A stretch of DNA of 64,000 bases from a virus (lineage: Duplodnaviria; Caudoviricetes): positions 26,682-90,681 of the IMG/VR virus record IMGVR_UViG_3300028888_000097. The stretch is one strand, 5' to 3'. Below are positions 19,173-64,000 of this stretch, piece by piece. The position numbers and the translations under genes are program-made. The notes beneath the pieces were generated by a model. The model saw only the letters and a program-made list of their open reading frames with translations, was not told the DNA's origin and did no database searches. Each line of letters starts with the position of its first letter. Position 1 is the stretch's first letter.

Positions 19173-19922
19173 ATGCCGAGGGGCAGGCCGAAACGCAAAA
19201 AGGCAGAGGAAGAGGGTATCGAAGAAGTTGAGCCCGTTTCGTCCGGGTCGATGAGCGTGGAAGAGACGCTGGACCAATTGAGCCGGGAAATGGAGGAGGC
19301 GAAGGCGGAGATCGAAAAGAGACAAAAGAGGGCGGAGGCGAACAAGTCATCCCGGAGGAACGGGCGCGTCTTTGAAGATATGATCGAGCGGGCGTGTAAG
19401 TTCTATGAAGACGCTGGACTGGCGCGGATCACAAAGGTCCCGGAGGCGCGGAGAGTCGTGGGGAGAACCGGCGGTCGGACATCCCTTATGATCTGCGCCA
19501 ACGCTGCCAAGGCGGACCCGGACTTCATGGGATCCGTTTCACCGGACGGGAAGTGCATGATCTTCGATGCGAAGCACACGGACAAGGGAAAGATTCTTCT
19601 GAACGCCCTGACGAAGAATCAGCGGGACATACTGGACAAGCACATGGCTTGCGGGGCGGACTGCTATGTGGCGGTTTCGTTTGGTTTCGAGAAGTATTAC
19701 ATGATTCCCTACGCGATGTGGAAGAACATGAAGGAGGAGTTCGGGAGGCAGTACATTCTTCCGGATGACGAGAAGATCCGGGCGTATTCCGTTCCGTTTG
19801 AGGTGACGGGTCAGACCAAGAAGGGCGAGGAGCTGGTGACGGTTTGGTTCCTCGGTCAGCGGGTGGATGTGCCGGTGTTCGAGGCGGAGAAGACGGAGGA
19901 AGAGGTCGTTTCATTCGAGTAA
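19173..19922 (+). CDS. recU: Holliday junction resolvase, RecU family
   Basis: GRVFEDMIERACKFY...ITKVP...PDFMG...IFDAKHT...NQ matches the RecU motif pattern. Confidence 0.8.
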   Translation: MPRGRPKRKKAEEEGIEEVEPVSSGSMSVEETLDQLSREMEEAKAEIEKRQKRAEANKSSRRNGRVFEDMIERACKFYEDAGLARITKVPEARRVVGRTGGRTSLMICANAAKADPDFMGSVSPDGKCMIFDAKHTDKGKILLNALTKNQRDILDKHMACGADCYVAVSFGFEKYYMIPYAMWKNMKEEFGRQYILPDDEKIRAYSVPFEVTGQTKKGEELVTVWFLGQRVDVPVFEAEKTEEEVVSFE

Positions 19923-19972
19923 AACAAAAAAAGAGGGGCGGGTCATTGCGATCCGTCCCTTATATTATTTTC
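19921..19972. terminator. Probable bidirectional intrinsic terminator between recU and the mini-array
   Basis: Stem AGGGGCGGG / TCCGTCCCT (19934-19960) with an A-tract on the left and a T-rich tract on the right. The stem pairs better on + (G-U wobbles) than on -. Confidence 0.65.
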
Positions 19973-19988
19973 CGTATATGGCGGTTTT

Positions 19989-20227
19989 CCGTCTCCTCGC
20001 ACGTCCGCGCGAGTTGCGTCAATCAGAAACGCGGTGCGCTCAATCCTGATGGTCCGTCTCTTCGCACGTCTGCGCGGGTTGCGTCGCTATCCGTGTACAA
20101 AAAGGCTTTTCATTCCGGTTGACGCCCCCGTCAACTCGCACATGCACGCGGGATGCATCGTTTGGGAAGACCATTCTGGTGAGGTCAACAAAATGCCGTC
20201 AACTCGCACATGCACACGGGATGCATC
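19989..20227 (-). CRISPR. Degenerate mini CRISPR array: four 32-nt repeats, three intervening sequences of 33, 42 and 36 nt
   Basis: + strand repeats: 19989-20020 CCGTCTCCTCGCACGTCCGCGCGAGTTGCGTC; 20054-20085 CCGTCTCTTCGCACGTCTGCGCGGGTTGCGTC; 20128-20159 CCGTCAACTCGCACATGCACGCGGGATGCATC; 20196-20227 CCGTCAACTCGCACATGCACACGGGATGCATC. Minus orientation is inferred from the adjacent effector and the ...GTTGACGG 3' end. Confidence 0.85.
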
Positions 20228-20491
20228 GGCGAAATATCCATTTTTCAAGGTGCATCTTTGGTTATAATGTGCAAGGCTTTCCGCGTATTGAGGTCTTTTC
20301 CGCTTCGGTTGACAGATTGCTCTGTATGGGCGAAACGGCGCTGAACCCCTTTCCGCAAAGCATTTCCCGTCTTGCAAACCGGATAAACCGATTCGTCTTT
20401 ATCGACGGAGGGACCATGACCGGGACCCTTTTCAACTCATTTTGGGAGTGCGAATCTCCCGACTTATTCTGTGGGCTTGGGTTTCGCGGGA
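20228..20491 (-). ncRNA. Putative tracrRNA/scaffold RNA
   Basis: Non-coding gap between effector stop and array. Minus-strand segments CTGTCAAC and TTGCACAT are complementary (with G-U) to the last 16 nt of repeats R3/R4. Inference only. Confidence 0.5.
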
Positions 20492-21991
20492 TTAACGAAT
20501 CCCCATACTGCTCAGGTGTGGTTTGCTTTCTGAATTGAGCCGATCCATTTCGGCATCGTGTAAGGATGCGAATTGAGGGTAGGTTTTCTTGCAGAGTTTT
20601 TTATCGGGTTCTTCTAACGACGGAGAAGAATTCATCAGAAGAAATGCTGAATACAAATCTCTTTGTATCTTGTCCCCGTTTTTCAGGTGATTCCAGCGCT
20701 GTTCCAGAGTCTTCTTTCTGTATTCGTCTGCGGTGTGATCGTACTGACTTGCCCTAAAGGTCCACTTGGCAACTTCATGGTATTCTCCGCCGACCCGTTG
20801 ACCTTTTTGTTCAAGCAGAAGCATGAACATTCCGGGGGCGCGGTTGGCAATAGACTTTCCGAATCGTTTCTTCCGGGCGAAATTCCCGTTTTTGTCTTTC
20901 TTGGTTTCTTTCGCCCGGCGCGCCAGTCCGCTCCATTCCATCGGCTCTATGTAGATTTCCCTGCCGAGCGACAGGATGTGATTCGCCATCCGGCAATGCT
21001 CCTGCTTCCGAATATCGGCGTTCTTTCGTTCCAATTCGCGGACGCGGCCTTCCATACGGAGGTAATGCTTGGATTTCGCCCACCGCAACTTGATGCCGCG
21101 TCTGATGGTTCCGTCCGGATTGAAGTTGTCCGGGTTCGTCGCTCTGCGGCTTCGGTCCATCTTCCGCTGAAGCGCAACCTTCTCCGCGTGATTCCGTTTC
21201 ACTCCCGCCGCCAACTCCGCAAGCCGGACTTCGGTCGGAGAAGACCACGCTATCGTCTGCGTACCAATGTCGATTCCGACGCGGCCTTTTCCGACGGGGC
21301 GGTATTTGGAAGCGGGTTCGCCCTGGTAGGTAATCTGGAGATAATACTTGTATCTCGTTTTGATCCACTTCCGGACGACGCGCATATTGCGGACTTCCTT
21401 CTGCATCATTTCCCGTTCGTAGGCGTTCTTGGGACGGCGGATGCGGATTTTCATAATCACACAATCGTCACAGCGTCCGCCTTTCCATGTGAAAACGTCT
21501 CCGTCAATGGTCATGCCGTCTCCGCGCGGGTACTTGCAAGCGATGCTGTCCAGCGAACCACGCTTGTGGAAATGAACCGCTTTCCCGTTTGAAAACAGAT
21601 ACTTTTCAAAGGAACGCCATACATCCTGCCCGGATCTTTGCGCGACGTTTGCGCTGATATGAGGGGCAAAATGCTTGTGAACAGCCAAATCGGTGGTGTC
21701 TTTGGAGAACCGAAAGTCTTTGAACCCGGCTTCTTTCAGCATCGCGTTCCGCTCCTTGAACAGAACTTTCTTCTGCTTTTCGTCAGAGCATTCGCGGATG
21801 GATTTTGCGAGGCGTTTCCACGCCCTCGTCCGTTCAAGCTGTTTCAGTTTGCGGAGTTCAAACCCGATGAGGGTATTCTTGAACTTTTCCACAATATCGA
21901 ACCGGGTTTCGATGATTCTGTCCTGCCAGGGTTCGGTGAGCAGAGGAAGCGTCAGCACACAGCAGACGGATTCCTCGTTTGATTTCGCCAT
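20492..21991 (-). CDS. Compact TnpB/Cas12-superfamily RNA-guided nuclease, CRISPR-associated (type V-like effector)
   Basis: RuvC-I GRVGIDIG, RuvC-II EIYIE and RuvC-III IQRDLYSAFL are all intact; no CxxC zinc ribbon; GAAAGGA RBS; TATAAT at 22027-22032 (minus); no tnpA nearby. Confidence 0.85.
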   Translation of the reverse strand: MAKSNEESVCCVLTLPLLTEPWQDRIIETRFDIVEKFKNTLIGFELRKLKQLERTRAWKRLAKSIRECSDEKQKKVLFKERNAMLKEAGFKDFRFSKDTTDLAVHKHFAPHISANVAQRSGQDVWRSFEKYLFSNGKAVHFHKRGSLDSIACKYPRGDGMTIDGDVFTWKGGRCDDCVIMKIRIRRPKNAYEREMMQKEVRNMRVVRKWIKTRYKYYLQITYQGEPASKYRPVGKGRVGIDIGTQTIAWSSPTEVRLAELAAGVKRNHAEKVALQRKMDRSRRATNPDNFNPDGTIRRGIKLRWAKSKHYLRMEGRVRELERKNADIRKQEHCRMANHILSLGREIYIEPMEWSGLARRAKETKKDKNGNFARKKRFGKSIANRAPGMFMLLLEQKGQRVGGEYHEVAKWTFRASQYDHTADEYRKKTLEQRWNHLKNGDKIQRDLYSAFLLMNSSPSLEEPDKKLCKKTYPQFASLHDAEMDRLNSESKPHLSSMGIR

Positions 21992-22152: not shown

Positions 22153-23157
22153 TCAGAGGGTAAACGCGGAGAACTTCTCGGCGATATTCTTCGCGGCCTT
22201 CGCTTTATTGAGAATGTGGGTATAGACTTTCTCTGTGGTGCGGAGGCTGGAATGGCCGAGGGCAAGCTGAACATCGCGGATGTCGGCTCCGCCGTCGGCC
22301 CAGAGGGACGTCGCGCAATGGCGGAGAAGGTGGGGATAGATGTCGCGTCCGATGACACGCTTTCCATATCGTTTGACGAGGCGGTCTAAGGTGGAGGCGT
22401 GGAACTTATGCCAGAGTTCGGCGCGGTTCGGTTCGTTCCCTTCGGGTTCATCAGTTTCTTCTTCCGATTCTATTTTGCCATCGTGCTGATGGGTTCCGAA
22501 GAGGAAGTCTTCATCGGTTGCCCATGCGGGGCGAATGCCGGAGTTCAGGTAATTCCGGAGGACGATTTGCGCGGCGGGCATGAAGGGGACGTTTCGTTCC
22601 TTCGATCCCTTGCCGTTCCGGACGGTGATGGTTTTTTCGTCCCAATGGAGATCTGAAGGGCGGAGTTCGCGCAGTTCGTCCGATCTGAGGCCGGTTAAGA
22701 TGATGGTGGCAACGATGGCGTAGTTGCGCTTCGGGAGTTTGCCCTTGATGGAAACCGGGATATTGGCGGGGTCGAGCAGCCGTTTGATTTCGTCTTCCGA
22801 GGGGATTTCCTTTTTGGTGAAGGTGAAAGCGGGGCGGCTGGATTCGGGGATGGGGGATTCGGAGACGAGCTTCATTTTCTTCGCCCACGTGAAGAAGCGT
22901 TCGACCGCGCCGTAATACTGATTGGCGGAATTCTGCGAGACGGTTGACATGAGAGAATCGCTCCACTCCTGAACGGTTAAGGGGGTGATTTCATCGGGGT
23001 TCGTTTCGTTCAGGTAATCCCGGAATTTGCGTAATCCGAGGTCATAGGCGCGGACGGTATGTTCGGACTTCTTCTGGGCGCGTTCGGAGGCGAGGTATCG
23101 GGGGTACAGTTCGTTATATTCGGCGGGGGTGAGGGATTCCGGGATCTGGTGGGACAT
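22153..23157 (-). CDS. XerC/D-like tyrosine recombinase
   Basis: N-terminal TVRAYDLGLRKF (SAM-like domain); catalytic TGLRSDEL, GKGSKER, HLLRH, LGHSSLRTTEKVY. Confidence 0.9.
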   Translation of the reverse strand: MSHQIPESLTPAEYNELYPRYLASERAQKKSEHTVRAYDLGLRKFRDYLNETNPDEITPLTVQEWSDSLMSTVSQNSANQYYGAVERFFTWAKKMKLVSESPIPESSRPAFTFTKKEIPSEDEIKRLLDPANIPVSIKGKLPKRNYAIVATIILTGLRSDELRELRPSDLHWDEKTITVRNGKGSKERNVPFMPAAQIVLRNYLNSGIRPAWATDEDFLFGTHQHDGKIESEEETDEPEGNEPNRAELWHKFHASTLDRLVKRYGKRVIGRDIYPHLLRHCATSLWADGGADIRDVQLALGHSSLRTTEKVYTHILNKAKAAKNIAEKFSAFTL

Positions 23158-45270: not shown

Positions 45271-47478
45271 AGAACGCTATCCGGTTCGATGCCGGGAATG
45301 CGGACAGGTGCTGGCGGTGCGGGAGGGGAACCTTGTGATCTCCTCCCTGAAGCACAGGAACCGGAAGAAAGAGGTCAGGGTGAAACTGGAATCCGGACAG
45401 AGCATGTGGATTGACTGCGATCACTGCGGTCAGAGCAATCAGTTAAAGGGAAACTAAATATCGAAGCGGGGAACCGGTGAGGACGGCTCCCCGAATTTAT
45501 TTGAGGAGGAAGACATGGCAGCGATTTCGTTTACAAACTTAACCGTTTCGGGAAACATGAGTTTCGAGGGAATTCCCTTCGATGCTTTCCGGAGGATTTT
45601 GGATTTCGTTGAATCGCAGACGCACGGGGCGATTCCGACAGGGACGGATCTGAACGATCTCAGCGAGGGTACACAGAAGGAAGCGGAGGTCACTGTACAG
45701 GGCAACGCGGCAGAGGTTGTTGTACCCGATGAGAAACCGGATGCGGCGAAGGAAGATCCGCCGAAAATTGATCCCTATCTTCTTGTGGGGAATTATGCGG
45801 GGAAGGACAGCGTGGTTCGGATCCTGAAAGATTATACTGGGAATCCGGAAGGTTACACGCAGGAATGGATGACGACAAGGCAGTGGATGGAAAAGGTGGA
45901 TCTCGGTTCTTCTGTCACATTGTTCAACGTCGCTCATATTCTTTCCGACTGCGCGAAGGCCGGGCTTCTGGAACGGAGGGCGGATTACAACCCGGAAGAG
46001 CACAAGAATGAAGTCCGGTTTCTGCTCCCGGCTCCGGTCCCGGTCAAGAAGGACACCATCGGAAGCCGGATCCATAAGGCGCGGAAGGAAAACGGATTTC
46101 TGGCCACGGAGCTGGCAGATCTGCTCGGGTACAGCGACGCGCTTCTCCTGAAATGGGAAAAGGACGAACTGGTTCCGTCGTCCGAGGCGATGGAAAATTT
46201 GAAGAAAGCCCTCGGGGACGATCTGTTTGACGGGTTGGGGGTATGAAAAATGAATAATAGATATGACACGCCGCAGTATCAGTGGGAGCAGATGATCTCA
46301 AGGATTACAGATGCGGCTGAAAGCGTGGCTTCCGCTTATGAATGCCTGATTAAAGCAATGTCGTATGGGGCGGGCAAGTACGACGACAACAACCAAAGTG
46401 CGTTCATAAAGAGCAGCATAACGGATAGCATGGACGCGCTTTACGATGTGATTCGTGGCGCCGCCGTTTTTTCAAGAACGATGGCGGCAGAGGAAAAGAA
46501 AGGAGAATCGGATGGAAGCGAAGAAGAAAACTGAGATTACGGTTGGCAGCGTGGTCAGGGTCGTTAAGGTTAAACAACCATTTGAGAAGCGGTTCCTCGG
46601 AAGGATCGGTGTGGTGGTATCTGTCGTAAAAGGGGTTGCGTTGGATTGTGGCGCAGATTCGCTTGTGCAGGAACGCATTAGGGTGCAGATCGACCGCGAT
46701 TTCTTCTGGTGCGACGAGGCTCAGGTTCAGCTTGTCACTTCGGAGAAGCAGAAAGTTCTCGAACAGGAAGCAACCGCGCACAAGTATAAGGTCGGGGATA
46801 TGGTTCGCGTGACAAATAACCATCCAGCGCATCTGTCAAGATCTTCGGACGATGTTTTGTTTTCCGAAGAGTGGTTGGAACTGGCGTCCACTGACAAGCC
46901 GAAACCCTCTCCGAAGCGGACTGTCGTTATCGAGATAACGAACGACGGCGCGGATGCGAAGTACATCGTCGGGAAGAATATCGAGAAGACGGCTTCGGTG
47001 AAGAGGCACAAGGACGACAAGCCGGATGACCGGCTGGCGGCACATTATGTCGTCGGGAAGCTGTTCGGGCAGAAAGTTATGAAGGATAATGTTGACATGG
47101 ACGCATTGAAGAACGCAAAGTATGACTGCATGATTGCCCGGTATCATCTCGATGAGATCAGCAAGGTTCTGGACCCGTTTGGGGAACCGGATTTCGGGAA
47201 AGTGGATTTTAAGTTCTGAAATCAGAATATTTTTGGCGGCGGGGTTTCGAGGGAGACTCCGCCGTCTTCCATAGGAGGAAGATATGATTAAGCGGAAATA
47301 CAAGCTGGTTTTCAAGGTCGGCGGGGGAATCACCCGGACCTTCCGGATCAAGTGCGCACAAGCGGATTTGCAGAGGCACATCCGGGACTGTGGGGAGATG
47401 CTGTCGGAGAGCTATCAGGATGTAACGTGCGTTTCAGCGGACGAATGCGATTGGGAGGAATACGAAAATGAAGCGTAA
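45260..47478 (+). other. Hypothetical genes 45260-45457 (CxxC...CxxC), 45515-46246 (C-terminal XRE HTH), 46250-46534, 46512-47219, 47284-47478
   Basis: Tiled co-directional ORFs with RBS; HTH IGSRIHKARKENGFLATELADLLGYSDALLLKWEK in 45515-46246. Confidence 0.65.
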
Positions 47479-48334
47479 CGACAAGCCGTCCCTCTGGCGG
47501 GATATGGCGGAGATCATCGCGGTGGTCGCGGTTTTCGGGCTTCTGCTCTGGCTGTTCCTTGCGGCGGTTCGGACGATAGCCGGGTATGCGCGGGAAGGAA
47601 GAGAAGACGGTCGGATGGCGGCGGACACGGTGAACGAGGAAGATGGCGTAGGACGCGCCACGGCTTCCCTGAACGGCGTTTTGCTCCTCGGAGGGGAAAC
47701 GGACGAACCGGAGAGAAACACGGCTCTGAGGGTCTACACGGAGGGTGTGGACAACCCTTTGCCGGAGTGGTGGGACCTGGATGGAGCGATCCTGATGTGG
47801 GAGGACCATTCTGGTGAAGGCAACAAAATGGTCGATGATGACCTTTTTACCGAAGCCAGGAATATGGTTGAAGCCGAACCACATCCGCCGGTCGGCGTGG
47901 ATCCCGGCGGGATTGATTACAACCTCTGCACAACGCTTTGGGGCTGGGACGGGCATTCGATGGAAGCCTGGGAGATGGACCTGTTCAGCATGATATTTTA
48001 CCGTGAGTTCTGGCAGCCGAATCTGACGCTGTGCGAAGCGGGATGTGATGCGATACTGCAACTGTGGGACCTGAACGGGAGGACGATGTTTGAGACGCTT
48101 TCCCACGTCAACGAGGACGGGTCCTATGCGTTCAGCACATATCCGGGCGTGTGGGAGGCCGAATACGATCCGGACGGGCTTGCGTGGTGCAGGGCATACT
48201 GCGAAGAGCGGTTTTGCGAAGGTCCGTCATGGCCCGCGCAGTATTTCCGGAAGGGACAGTATCATGATTGGGATGAATGGAGTCCCATACCGGCGTATGA
48301 GATTGATGGGATTTATTTTAGCATCGGGAGGTGA
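47468..48334 (+). CDS. Membrane-anchored protein with a divergent SleB/Hydrolase_2-like C-terminal domain; contains the near-match to CRISPR spacer 3
   Basis: N-terminal TM helix. EMDLFSMIFYRE...AILQL...TMFETL...YAFST...YFR...EIDGIYFS follows the SleB-like spacing (weak, by eye). Confidence 0.55.
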   Translation: MKRNDKPSLWRDMAEIIAVVAVFGLLLWLFLAAVRTIAGYAREGREDGRMAADTVNEEDGVGRATASLNGVLLLGGETDEPERNTALRVYTEGVDNPLPEWWDLDGAILMWEDHSGEGNKMVDDDLFTEARNMVEAEPHPPVGVDPGGIDYNLCTTLWGWDGHSMEAWEMDLFSMIFYREFWQPNLTLCEAGCDAILQLWDLNGRTMFETLSHVNEDGSYAFSTYPGVWEAEYDPDGLAWCRAYCEERFCEGPSWPAQYFRKGQYHDWDEWSPIPAYEIDGIYFSIGR

Positions 48335-63041: not shown

Positions 63042-64000
63042 ATGAGTTATCAGGAGTTTTTGGAGTCAAAGACGGTGGCCGCTCCGGTTTCCGGGTTTGA
63101 CATTGACTTATCGGAGCTGAATCCGGTATTGAAGGAACATCAGAAGATTTCGGTACAGTGGGCTTGTAAAGGCGGACGTCGGGCCTTATTTGAATCGTTT
63201 GGGTTAGGAAAGTCCAGTTGTCAGTTGGAATACTGCCGAATGGTGCTGCAACACGAGGACGGGACGGAGCCGGGGGTGAGACATCAGGCGTTGATTGTGT
63301 GTCCATTGGGCGTGAAGCAGGAGTTCACGAACGATGCGGAAAACCTTCTCGGATGGGACAGGATTCCGGAATATGTGCGGGACATGGCGGAAATCCGGGC
63401 GACGGACAATCCGATTCTTCTGACAAACTATGAGCGCGTGAGGGACGGGGACATCGATCCGACGTACTTCACGGCCTGTTGTCTGGACGAGGCGTCCGTT
63501 CTCCGGTCCTTCGGATCCAAAACCTATCAGACGTTCCTCGACAAGTTCAAGGGAGTACGGTACAAGTTGGTTGCGACGGCGACGCCGGATCCGAACAAGT
63601 ACAAAGAACTGATTCACTATGCGGGATTTCTGGAGGTGATGGACTCCGGACAGGCGTTGACGCGCTTTTTCCAGAGGGACAGCACGAAAGCGAACAATCT
63701 GACGATCTATCCGCACAAGGAAGAAGAATTCTGGCTTTGGGTTTCGACGTGGGCGTTTTTCCTCTCCACGCCGTCCGATCTGGGGCTTGACGCGGAGGGA
63801 TACGAACTGCCGCCGCTTGACATCCGGTATCACAAGCTGCCGGGGGCGAAATCGGTGGTTCAGAAGGACGGACAGATTGCGATGTTCAACGACGTTGCCG
63901 AGGGGTTATCGGCGGCGGCGCGGGAAAAGAGGGAATCGCTCGATGCGCGGGTCGCCTGTATGATGGAGATTGTGAAGTACGATCCGGAGGCGCACTTCAT
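63042..64000 (+). CDS. SNF2/DEAD-like helicase, truncated by the window end
   Basis: ATG at 63042 after GGAGG, open to the window end; HQ...FESFGLGKS, LIVCPL, CLDEAS, ATATP. Confidence 0.82.
   Translation, partial: MSYQEFLESKTVAAPVSGFDIDLSELNPVLKEHQKISVQWACKGGRRALFESFGLGKSSCQLEYCRMVLQHEDGTEPGVRHQALIVCPLGVKQEFTNDAENLLGWDRIPEYVRDMAEIRATDNPILLTNYERVRDGDIDPTYFTACCLDEASVLRSFGSKTYQTFLDKFKGVRYKLVATATPDPNKYKELIHYAGFLEVMDSGQALTRFFQRDSTKANNLTIYPHKEEEFWLWVSTWAFFLSTPSDLGLDAEGYELPPLDIRYHKLPGAKSVVQKDGQIAMFNDVAEGLSAAAREKRESLDARVACMMEIVKYDPEAHF

Follow-up and report, generated by a model that had tools for sequence, protein, structure and literature searches.

A spacer resembling a gene of its own phage in a putative TnpB-derived, type V-like CRISPR module

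The locus described here raises the question of why a phage would carry, in a short repeat array, a spacer that resembles one of its own genes without matching it exactly. The array lies in a stretch of 64,000 nucleotides, hereafter the window, which makes up the right-hand 64 kb of an IMG/VR virus record of 90,681 bp that CheckV rates complete. About 126 nt near the start of this record (G000:5-130) recur near its end (G000:90534-90659, window 63853-63978), followed by 22 differing bases, and this recurrence suggests a circularly permuted or terminally redundant genome, though IMG/VR lists the record as linear.

An initial annotation of the window noticed the near-match and proposed that the array is directed against sibling phages while the resident gene is spared, or that partial pairing represses the phage's own gene. 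The reading favored here, with fair confidence, is that spacer 3 of this phage-borne, TnpB-derived and type V-like module serves interference between phages, and that the resident allele would be spared by its mismatches to the guide.

The nuclease, its scaffold RNA and the array

The array (19989-20228) consists of four direct repeats of 33 nt each, spaced 65, 74 and 68 nt apart, which enclose unique spacers of 32, 41 and 35 nt, the regular arrangement of a CRISPR array (Table 1). The order of gene, scaffold and array, which is constant in every locus, the scaffold-side position of the newest spacer when array L014 is compared with array L016, and the terminal hairpin with its T-run together indicate that the array would be read out on the minus strand; the hairpin itself came out on the plus strand in the hairpin listing. 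L014 and L016, which belong to sister phages, have one spacer in common, and the extra spacer of L014 is scaffold-proximal, a polarity that fits a putative leader on the scaffold side. Array turnover with polarity was thus observed among sister phages, not in the lineage of the window itself. For spacer 1, no match was found in its own record at 80% identity or above or, in exact form, in IMG/VR, and BLAST comparison of the window array and the L018 array with 50,697 GenBank phages returned nothing meaningful.

Table 1. Window coordinates of the module, of the site resembled by spacer 3 and of neighboring features
Feature	Position	Strand	Basis or remark
Tyrosine integrase, directly upstream of nuclease gene	22153-23157	-	Pfam Phage_integrase, 1.9e-26
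TnpB-derived, Cas12-like RuvC nuclease P0001, 499 aa	20492-21991	-	PADLOC, PHROG, NCBIfam, AlphaFold/Foldseek
Conserved non-coding scaffold, tracrRNA/omega-RNA-like	20229-20491	-	Between nuclease stop codon and array
Repeat R4, A type, first in transcription order	20196-20228	-	Near-identical to repeats of chromosomal locus L124
Spacer 3, 35 nt, first spacer in transcription order	20161-20195	-	Between R4 and R3; 31/35 to 47796-47830
Repeat R3, A type	20128-20160	-	Repeat comparison, L124 type
'Spacer 2', 41 nt	20087-20127	-	Identical to a piece of the L209 scaffold
Repeat R2, B type	20054-20086	-	L209 type
Spacer 1, 32 nt, in B-type portion	20022-20053	-	Between R2 and R1
Repeat R1, B type	19989-20021	-	Equals first repeat of L209
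Hairpin then T-run, likely terminator of array transcript	19918-19961	-	Sequence; shared with convergent RecU gene
Target gene, 288-aa protein P0121	47468-48334	+	Holds site 47796-47830
Resident near-match, protospacer-like site	47796-47830	+	Inside gene 47468-48334

The synteny of integrase and nuclease recurs in the sister contig L209. Profile and structure comparisons place the nuclease, P0001, in the TnpB/Cas12 family. Its PADLOC profiles are Cas12u2 (5.6e-16) and Cas12f (3.9e-13), and it matches the 'transposase' family PHROG 506, which we take to be TnpB-like, at 1e-37. The NCBIfam models guided_TnpB (NF040570; 57.8 bits) and C2c8/V-U2 (NF038192; 54.5 bits, 1e-14) were matched below their curated cut-offs of 100 and 350 bits, respectively, and no Pfam family was matched, OrfB_Zn_ribbon and OrfB_IS605 included. 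The AlphaFold model (pLDDT 87) retrieved TnpB, Cas12p, Cas12m, Cas12f and LaTranC as top structures in Foldseek at 10-15% identity, with an E-value of 6e-14 against ISFba1 TnpB. The TnpB/Cas12 fold of P0001 carries the single RuvC D-E-D triad (D241, E349 and D445), which is invariant in alignment A3 of 32 family members, and the ORF is intact and retains every family-invariant residue. Residues 349-445, between RuvC-II and RuvC-III, contain no cysteine and hence no CxxC...CxxC zinc ribbon; the usual TnpB/Cas12 zinc ribbon is thus lost in P0001 though the triad is invariant.

The scaffold, which fills the 263 nt between the end of the P0001 ORF and the array, is conserved in L003, L004 and L005; of 25 array-bearing loci that were measured, 23 have 209-274 nt of scaffold ahead of their first repeat. 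It matched no Rfam family, and folding of the scaffold together with the first crRNA gave a z-score of only -1.35. A simple complement search revealed an 8-bp scaffold partner of the repeat 3' end (CTGTCAAC) that is clear only in the window and in L124, and scaffold-repeat pairing showed no consistent covariation across clades. A promoter scan yielded nothing above shuffled background. Neither cas1 nor cas2 was found when the phage was searched for them.

More than 4,000 homologues of P0001 were recovered, and those that are named are annotated as Clostridia or Ruminococcus 'transposase'. The layout of the module is common to more than 30 related loci in phages and in Ruminococcaceae/Oscillospiraceae genomes. 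In the relatives of at least 42% identity that were examined, a scaffold of ~210-270 nt past the stop codon is followed by 2-15 repeats of 32-33 nt, and 26 of the 29 chromosomal loci examined (Ruminococcus bromii, Ruminococcoides, Oscillospiraceae and Christensenellales) have arrays. Viral relatives at or below 40% identity to P0001 have no array. The boundary between array-bearing and array-less relatives lies at ~40-42% identity to P0001 and is not sharp, as 17 chromosomal loci within this range have arrays. A Cas1 was present anywhere in the genome in two of five array-bearing host genomes checked, and none was found in the other three.

Several further observations concern individual relatives. 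L131 (Ruminococcus bromii ATCC 27255) and other loci in the L129-L176 series have arrays of up to 15 repeats behind homologous nucleases, including in the three of five checked genomes that yielded no Cas1. The array-less relatives at 35-40% identity (L019-L091) occur in multiple copies per record, e.g., L057, L058 and L059 in one record, as expected if they are read as ordinary TnpB insertion sequences. At L017, two repeat families of one array are separated by a gap of ~198 nt (L017:4908-5106) that holds collinear scaffold pieces; this composite array thus contains a degenerate extra copy of the scaffold. About 7 kb from L124 (L124:12415-13504) there are holin and M23 peptidase genes, and this locus may therefore lie near a prophage remnant.

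The arrays and conserved scaffold of relatives at 42% identity or above, the array-less TnpB-like relatives at 40% or below, and the lack of cas1 and cas2 point to a TnpB-derived, type V-like CRISPR system of the TranC kind, with only a remote relationship to LaTranC. TranC systems are transposon-CRISPR intermediates marked by the use of both crRNA and reRNA guides. They include LaTranC/TranC11a and CauTranC9, the latter found in phage, and a role in superinfection exclusion has been put forward for a phage-borne representative (10.1101/2025.09.28.678669, 10.64898/2026.03.27.714800). The likeness extends to a compact TnpB-derived nuclease, an array with 32-36-bp repeats, a tracr-like RNA derived from an omega/reRNA, the lack of adaptation genes and the existence of close TnpB relatives without arrays; the window module likewise combines an array and a tracr-like remnant with array-less nearest TnpB relatives. 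In contrast to LaTranC, which ranked only 14th in Foldseek at 15% identity and was matched in a PDB profile search only through 9j09_A (E 6.5e-4), P0001 has 499 rather than 574 aa and no zinc-ribbon cysteines.

Cas12p, the 'Cas12 hacker', is a phage-encoded miniature Cas12 with a thioredoxin-binding domain and a GTN PAM, whose tracrRNA forms a pseudoknot with the repeat 3' end (10.1101/2025.01.20.633832). It resembles the window system as a phage-associated type V effector of 500-700 aa near TnpB (10.1101/2025.01.20.633832) and is the second-best structural match of P0001 (9jfs_A), but the identity is 12% and the window system has no sign of a thioredoxin-binding domain or GTN PAM. Type V-U2 (C2c8) and Cas12f (V-F) supply the best profile matches of P0001 outside TnpB, but these fall far below curated cut-offs (54.5 vs 350 bits) and cover only the WED/RuvC half.

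Spacer 3 and the alleles of its target gene

Spacer 3 and window positions 47796-47830 agree on the same strand at 31 of 35 nucleotides. No other match of 80% or better to one of the three spacers occurs outside the array across the 90,681-bp record, and the agreement lies far beyond chance, since 200 composition-preserving shuffles of spacer 3 gave at best 24/35 (mean 21.2). The near-match reported in the initial annotation therefore stands, but the boundary that had been drawn, a 36-nt spacer matching at 31/36, does not, because G20160 is the last base of repeat R3. Recomputed translations agreed with those given earlier: the spacer reads VWEDHSGEVNKM and the resident gene MWEDHSGEGNKM, with two synonymous GAA/GAG changes and two non-synonymous ones (M/V and G/V). 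In the transcribed (minus) orientation, the mismatches at the resident site fall at guide positions 11, 13, 28 and 34, positions 1-10 are paired and the guide-sense 5' flank reads ...CATCGAC, which reproduces the ten matched nucleotides, the mismatches at 11 and 13 and the TCGAC flank first described.

The target protein, P0121, has a membrane helix at its N terminus, a disordered, indel-variable linker in which the site falls, and a C-terminal domain that is conserved and contains Cys. Its AlphaFold model is of low confidence overall (pLDDT 40), with a helix at residues 9-46 and a linker at pLDDT 22-29, and no Pfam, PHROG, PADLOC or NCBIfam match was found. Neighboring genes are of recombination or early type and include a DUF3799 nuclease, HTH, YopX and HAD_SAK_2. 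The spacer-matched segment comprises codons 108-119 of the 288-codon gene and is an indel that many alleles lack (alignment A2, best 20 of 178 homologues). Among the 120 homologues listed, of 178, the segment is present in about 12 proteins and in four forms: the resident 'M...G' form, ...ILMWEDH[S/F]GEGNKM, in eight proteins including the resident one; the 'V...V' form, ...ELVWEDHSGEVN[K/I]M, in three (P0133-P0135); and GEANKM forms in two further proteins.

These alleles inform the origin of the spacer. Spacer 3 has the V...V state at both non-synonymous positions, and P0135 contains the exact 12-residue peptide encoded by the spacer, and it accordingly stems from an unsampled member of the V...V lineage and not from the resident allele. 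Acquisition from the phage's own allele, followed by escape mutation, was considered and rejected: the resident allele is common to seven other proteins, and the states in the spacer are those of another natural lineage. At the DNA level, the V...V alleles match spacer 3 at 31/35 (L008-L010) or 30/35 (L011, in which every difference is synonymous), with mismatches at guide positions 5, 13, 19 and 34 in the L008 type and 13, 16, 19, 25 and 34 in L011. The contigs that carry these alleles are similar to the window phage over only ~1 kb. The suggestion that the spacer derived from the homologous gene of a closely related phage thus held as regards a different allele lineage in other phages, but neither the close relationship nor an exact source was borne out.

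Perfect matches in viral and metagenomic sequences, which had been put forward as a check, were sought with spacer 3 in exact form and as a codon-degenerate pattern, and none occurred in IMG/VR or in JGI metagenomes. All sampled alleles, the resident one included, have four or five mismatches to the guide, position 13 is mismatched in every one, and at least two mismatches lie within the first 20 nt; consequently, no currently known phage is demonstrably targetable by spacer 3.

Whether flanking sequence could distinguish self from sibling alleles was also considered. The resident flank CATCGAC and the sibling flank CATCAAC differ only at -3 (G vs A). Other usable flanks are CCTTC, next to a 41/41 site described below; GGAA, next to the target of a spacer in the related phage G003, behind which stands a 51%-identical effector; and GGTA, next to the one plausible partial protospacer (24/25, spacer 4) that the L124 array yielded against 401 genomes of the order. 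No PAM consensus emerged from these few flanks (CCTTC, TCAAC, GGAA and GGTA). The ideas of a T-rich PAM and of PAM loss at the resident site accordingly gained no support.

Sparing of the resident site would rest on its mismatches to the guide. TnpB and small Cas12 enzymes work with guides of ~16-20 nt and tolerate mismatches poorly in the PAM-proximal and central portions, and among type V effectors two mid-guide mismatches within a ~20-nt guide strongly reduce cleavage. Given this general sensitivity, the mismatches at positions 11 and 13 lead us to expect that cutting of the resident site would be strongly reduced.

A guide that pairs perfectly over ten PAM-proximal nucleotides, then meets mismatches, and matches at 31/35 overall might instead bind the resident gene uncut and lower its expression, in the manner of cr-like RNAs or TldR. 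Partial-match regulatory guides and nuclease-dead, TnpB-derived repressors in prophages provide precedents for such self-regulation (10.1101/2023.03.03.530964, 10.1101/2023.11.30.569447). Several findings nevertheless make this explanation highly improbable. RNA-guided repressors have an inactivated nuclease or a partial guide aimed at a promoter, whereas the RuvC triad of P0001 is invariant, which argues against a dead repressor, and the site, at codons 108-119, lies mid-gene in a variable linker rather than at a promoter. The mismatches are explained by allele history, as the non-synonymous states belong to another natural allele. Moreover, when the 29 internal spacers of eight complete or partial module-bearing phage records were compared with all of those records, only one, spacer 3 of the window, came close to matching the record that carries it. 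The family therefore has no habit of near-self matching that would point to regulation.

Mosaic origin of the locus

A sliding comparison of the window locus, with nucleotides numbered from the ATG and the gene ending at nt 1500, revealed changes in closest relative. From nt 1 to ~1000, the gene is closest to phage contig L209 (94-100%), which has the same integrase-nuclease synteny, and from ~1000 to 1260 it is closest to L003 (88-96%). The closest relative is ambiguous at nt ~1260-1560, and from ~60 nt past the stop codon to the first repeat it is L124 (88-94%), a chromosomal locus of a Clostridia MAG with an eight-repeat array. Breakpoints thus lie at gene nt ~1000, ~1260 and shortly past the stop codon. 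The repeats are divided in the same manner, with R4 and R3 of the L124 type (A) and R2 and R1 of the L209 type (B). The nuclease gene and RNA region (window 20196-21991) are thus a recombinant mosaic of at least three lineages.

The mosaic bears on 'spacer 2' as well. This 41-nt sequence matches L209:3830-3870 at 41/41, with a 5' flank of CCTTC, and the window's own scaffold at only 23/41. The stretch that it forms with R2, spacer 1 and R1 runs in the same order as the scaffold end, degenerate R0, spacer and R1 in both L209 and L003. This collinearity favors the view that 'spacer 2' is what remains of a B-type scaffold that was replaced, and makes its capture as a spacer less likely. A comparable inner partial scaffold lies between the two repeat families of L017. 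Spacer 3, then, stands alone among the ordinary spacers in having on either side a repeat that is cognate to the present scaffold. The sequence after R3 would still serve as a guide against intact sister modules.

Since the locus is mosaic, spacer 3 probably arrived with a foreign scaffold-repeat segment. The segment most likely comprised the 3' end of the gene, the scaffold and the first two repeats, and the spacer was probably not acquired in place; it may accordingly stem from a genome in which the target was plainly non-self. Such an arrival invites the explanation that spacer 3 is a passive hitch-hiker, acquired elsewhere, in a chromosome like L124 or another phage, and carried in by recombination with no selected role, its near-self match being a tolerated relic of that past. 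The 88-94% identity of the scaffold to chromosomal L124, next to a gene that is 94-100% identical to L209 and then 88-96% to L003, speaks for this explanation, as do the L124-type R4 and R3 beside L209-type R2 and R1, and the isolation of the near-self match among the phage-borne spacers fits it too. Passive carriage is, however, compatible with a current function, as the triad, scaffold, two cognate repeats and terminator are intact, and spacer 3 is not among the eight spacers of L124. We regard a purely passive role as rather unlikely.

A chimeric module could also be a recombination by-product of uncertain activity, since its nuclease gene combines three lineages and two of its four repeats are of another lineage than the scaffold. 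One explanation along these lines is that the module is unexpressed or non-functional in its chimeric form; a related one is that it actively targets its own genome, e.g., as an induction switch or at a cost that selects for silencing. The nuclease is indeed a chimera of at least three lineages, half of the repeats come from another lineage than the scaffold, and the promoter scan did no better than shuffled background. Against this stand the intact ORF with all family-invariant residues in a record that CheckV rates complete, the strong counter-selection that efficient self-cutting would incur, and the general reduction of type V cleavage by two mid-guide mismatches. Both forms of this explanation, taken together, appear very unlikely.

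The three-way mosaic and the 41/41 match to intact B-type sister modules permit yet another, homing-like reading, without demonstrating it. In the TnpB homing of IS200/IS605 elements, the TnpB guide matches the element-free site (Meers et al. 2023, in PMC11656645). The window locus is similar in that the guide after R3 reads flanking DNA and matches the uninterrupted scaffold of a sister module at 41/41. By analogy, an A-type segment (nuclease 3' end, scaffold, repeat, spacer 3 and repeat) would have entered an L209-like module through gene conversion stimulated by the nuclease, so that the guide after the last A repeat reads the old B-type scaffold; given its perfect match, the hybrid could then cut and convert rival modules. 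Array-bearing descendants of TnpB would, on these terms, still spread by guide-directed gene conversion, with spacer 3 as cargo that attacks V...V phages. The window module differs from such elements in having no transposase or defined element ends, its cleavage activity is only predicted, and the replaced tract starts inside the nuclease gene rather than as a clean insertion. Spread by homing of this kind seems distinctly unlikely.

Targeting between phages

Evidence that these systems are directed at other phages comes from a sister system. The newest, scaffold-proximal spacer of the L014 array in phage G003 matches G001:43872, G002:53940 and G004:44866 at 35/35, in each case a relative that carries the same system. 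The target gene has no copy in G003, and the spacer is absent from the G003 genome outside the array. The target is an acidic linker, with the 5' flank GAGGAA. At the level of sequence, this is a clean case of inter-phage targeting, in which a spacer matches relatives of its carrier and not the carrier; spacer 3 of the window matches self at 31/35 and other phages at 30-31/35. The proposal that the system attacks sibling phages is thus upheld by G003, whereas for spacer 3 itself no exact target was found. Elsewhere, 136 spacers from 26 chromosomal arrays, together with those of L124 and L128, gave only chance-level matches of 14-19 nt against ~1 Mb of related phage DNA.

Virus-borne arrays of this general kind have a precedent in the viral mini-arrays of SPV1 and SPV2, for which the concept of targeting the carrier's relatives is reported to be experimentally validated. 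The systems are alike in having a short virus-borne array whose spacers derive from the carrier's relatives, and in its interpretation as competition between viruses. They differ in that the mini-arrays rely on host Cas proteins and host-type repeats, whereas the window phage brings its own nuclease and scaffold RNA, and in that the one informative spacer of the window is a 31/35 near-match to its carrier, with no perfect target sampled.

Under the favored reading of inter-phage interference, the nuclease, a ~260-nt scaffold RNA and a short array would be transcribed on the minus strand beside the integrase. The spacer would have been copied from a V...V allele of the variable linker, of a gene that is also present here in the M...G form; given the diversity of alleles, an imperfect match of a spacer to the phage's own gene is indeed what this model leads one to expect. 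The crRNA, composed of a repeat handle and the spacer (5' CATTTTGTTG...), would pair with the plus (coding) strand and direct cutting of incoming or co-resident phages with a matching allele. The resident copy would probably remain uncut, as only guide positions 1-10 pair before the mismatches at 11, 13, 28 and 34. In this way a temperate phage would compete with other phages or exclude superinfecting ones.

Because viral arrays that target related viruses are already established, the spacer match is confirmatory rather than new, and the locus adds one more example, whose nuclease lineage is its own and structurally uncharacterized. Less ordinary are the three-way mosaic and the perfect post-repeat match to sister modules. 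Natural guide-target pairs for PAM and mismatch tests are provided by spacer 3 and two allele lineages, by the 41/41 scaffold match and by the G003 spacer and its three phages. The mosaic also shows that such modules are reshuffled by recombination between phages and bacterial chromosomes. Should the nuclease prove active, the locus would be a natural case in which a temperate gut phage with Ruminococcaceae-type hosts wields its own 499-aa, zinc-finger-less RNA-guided nuclease against other phages, with an allele-level record of what is attacked and what is spared.
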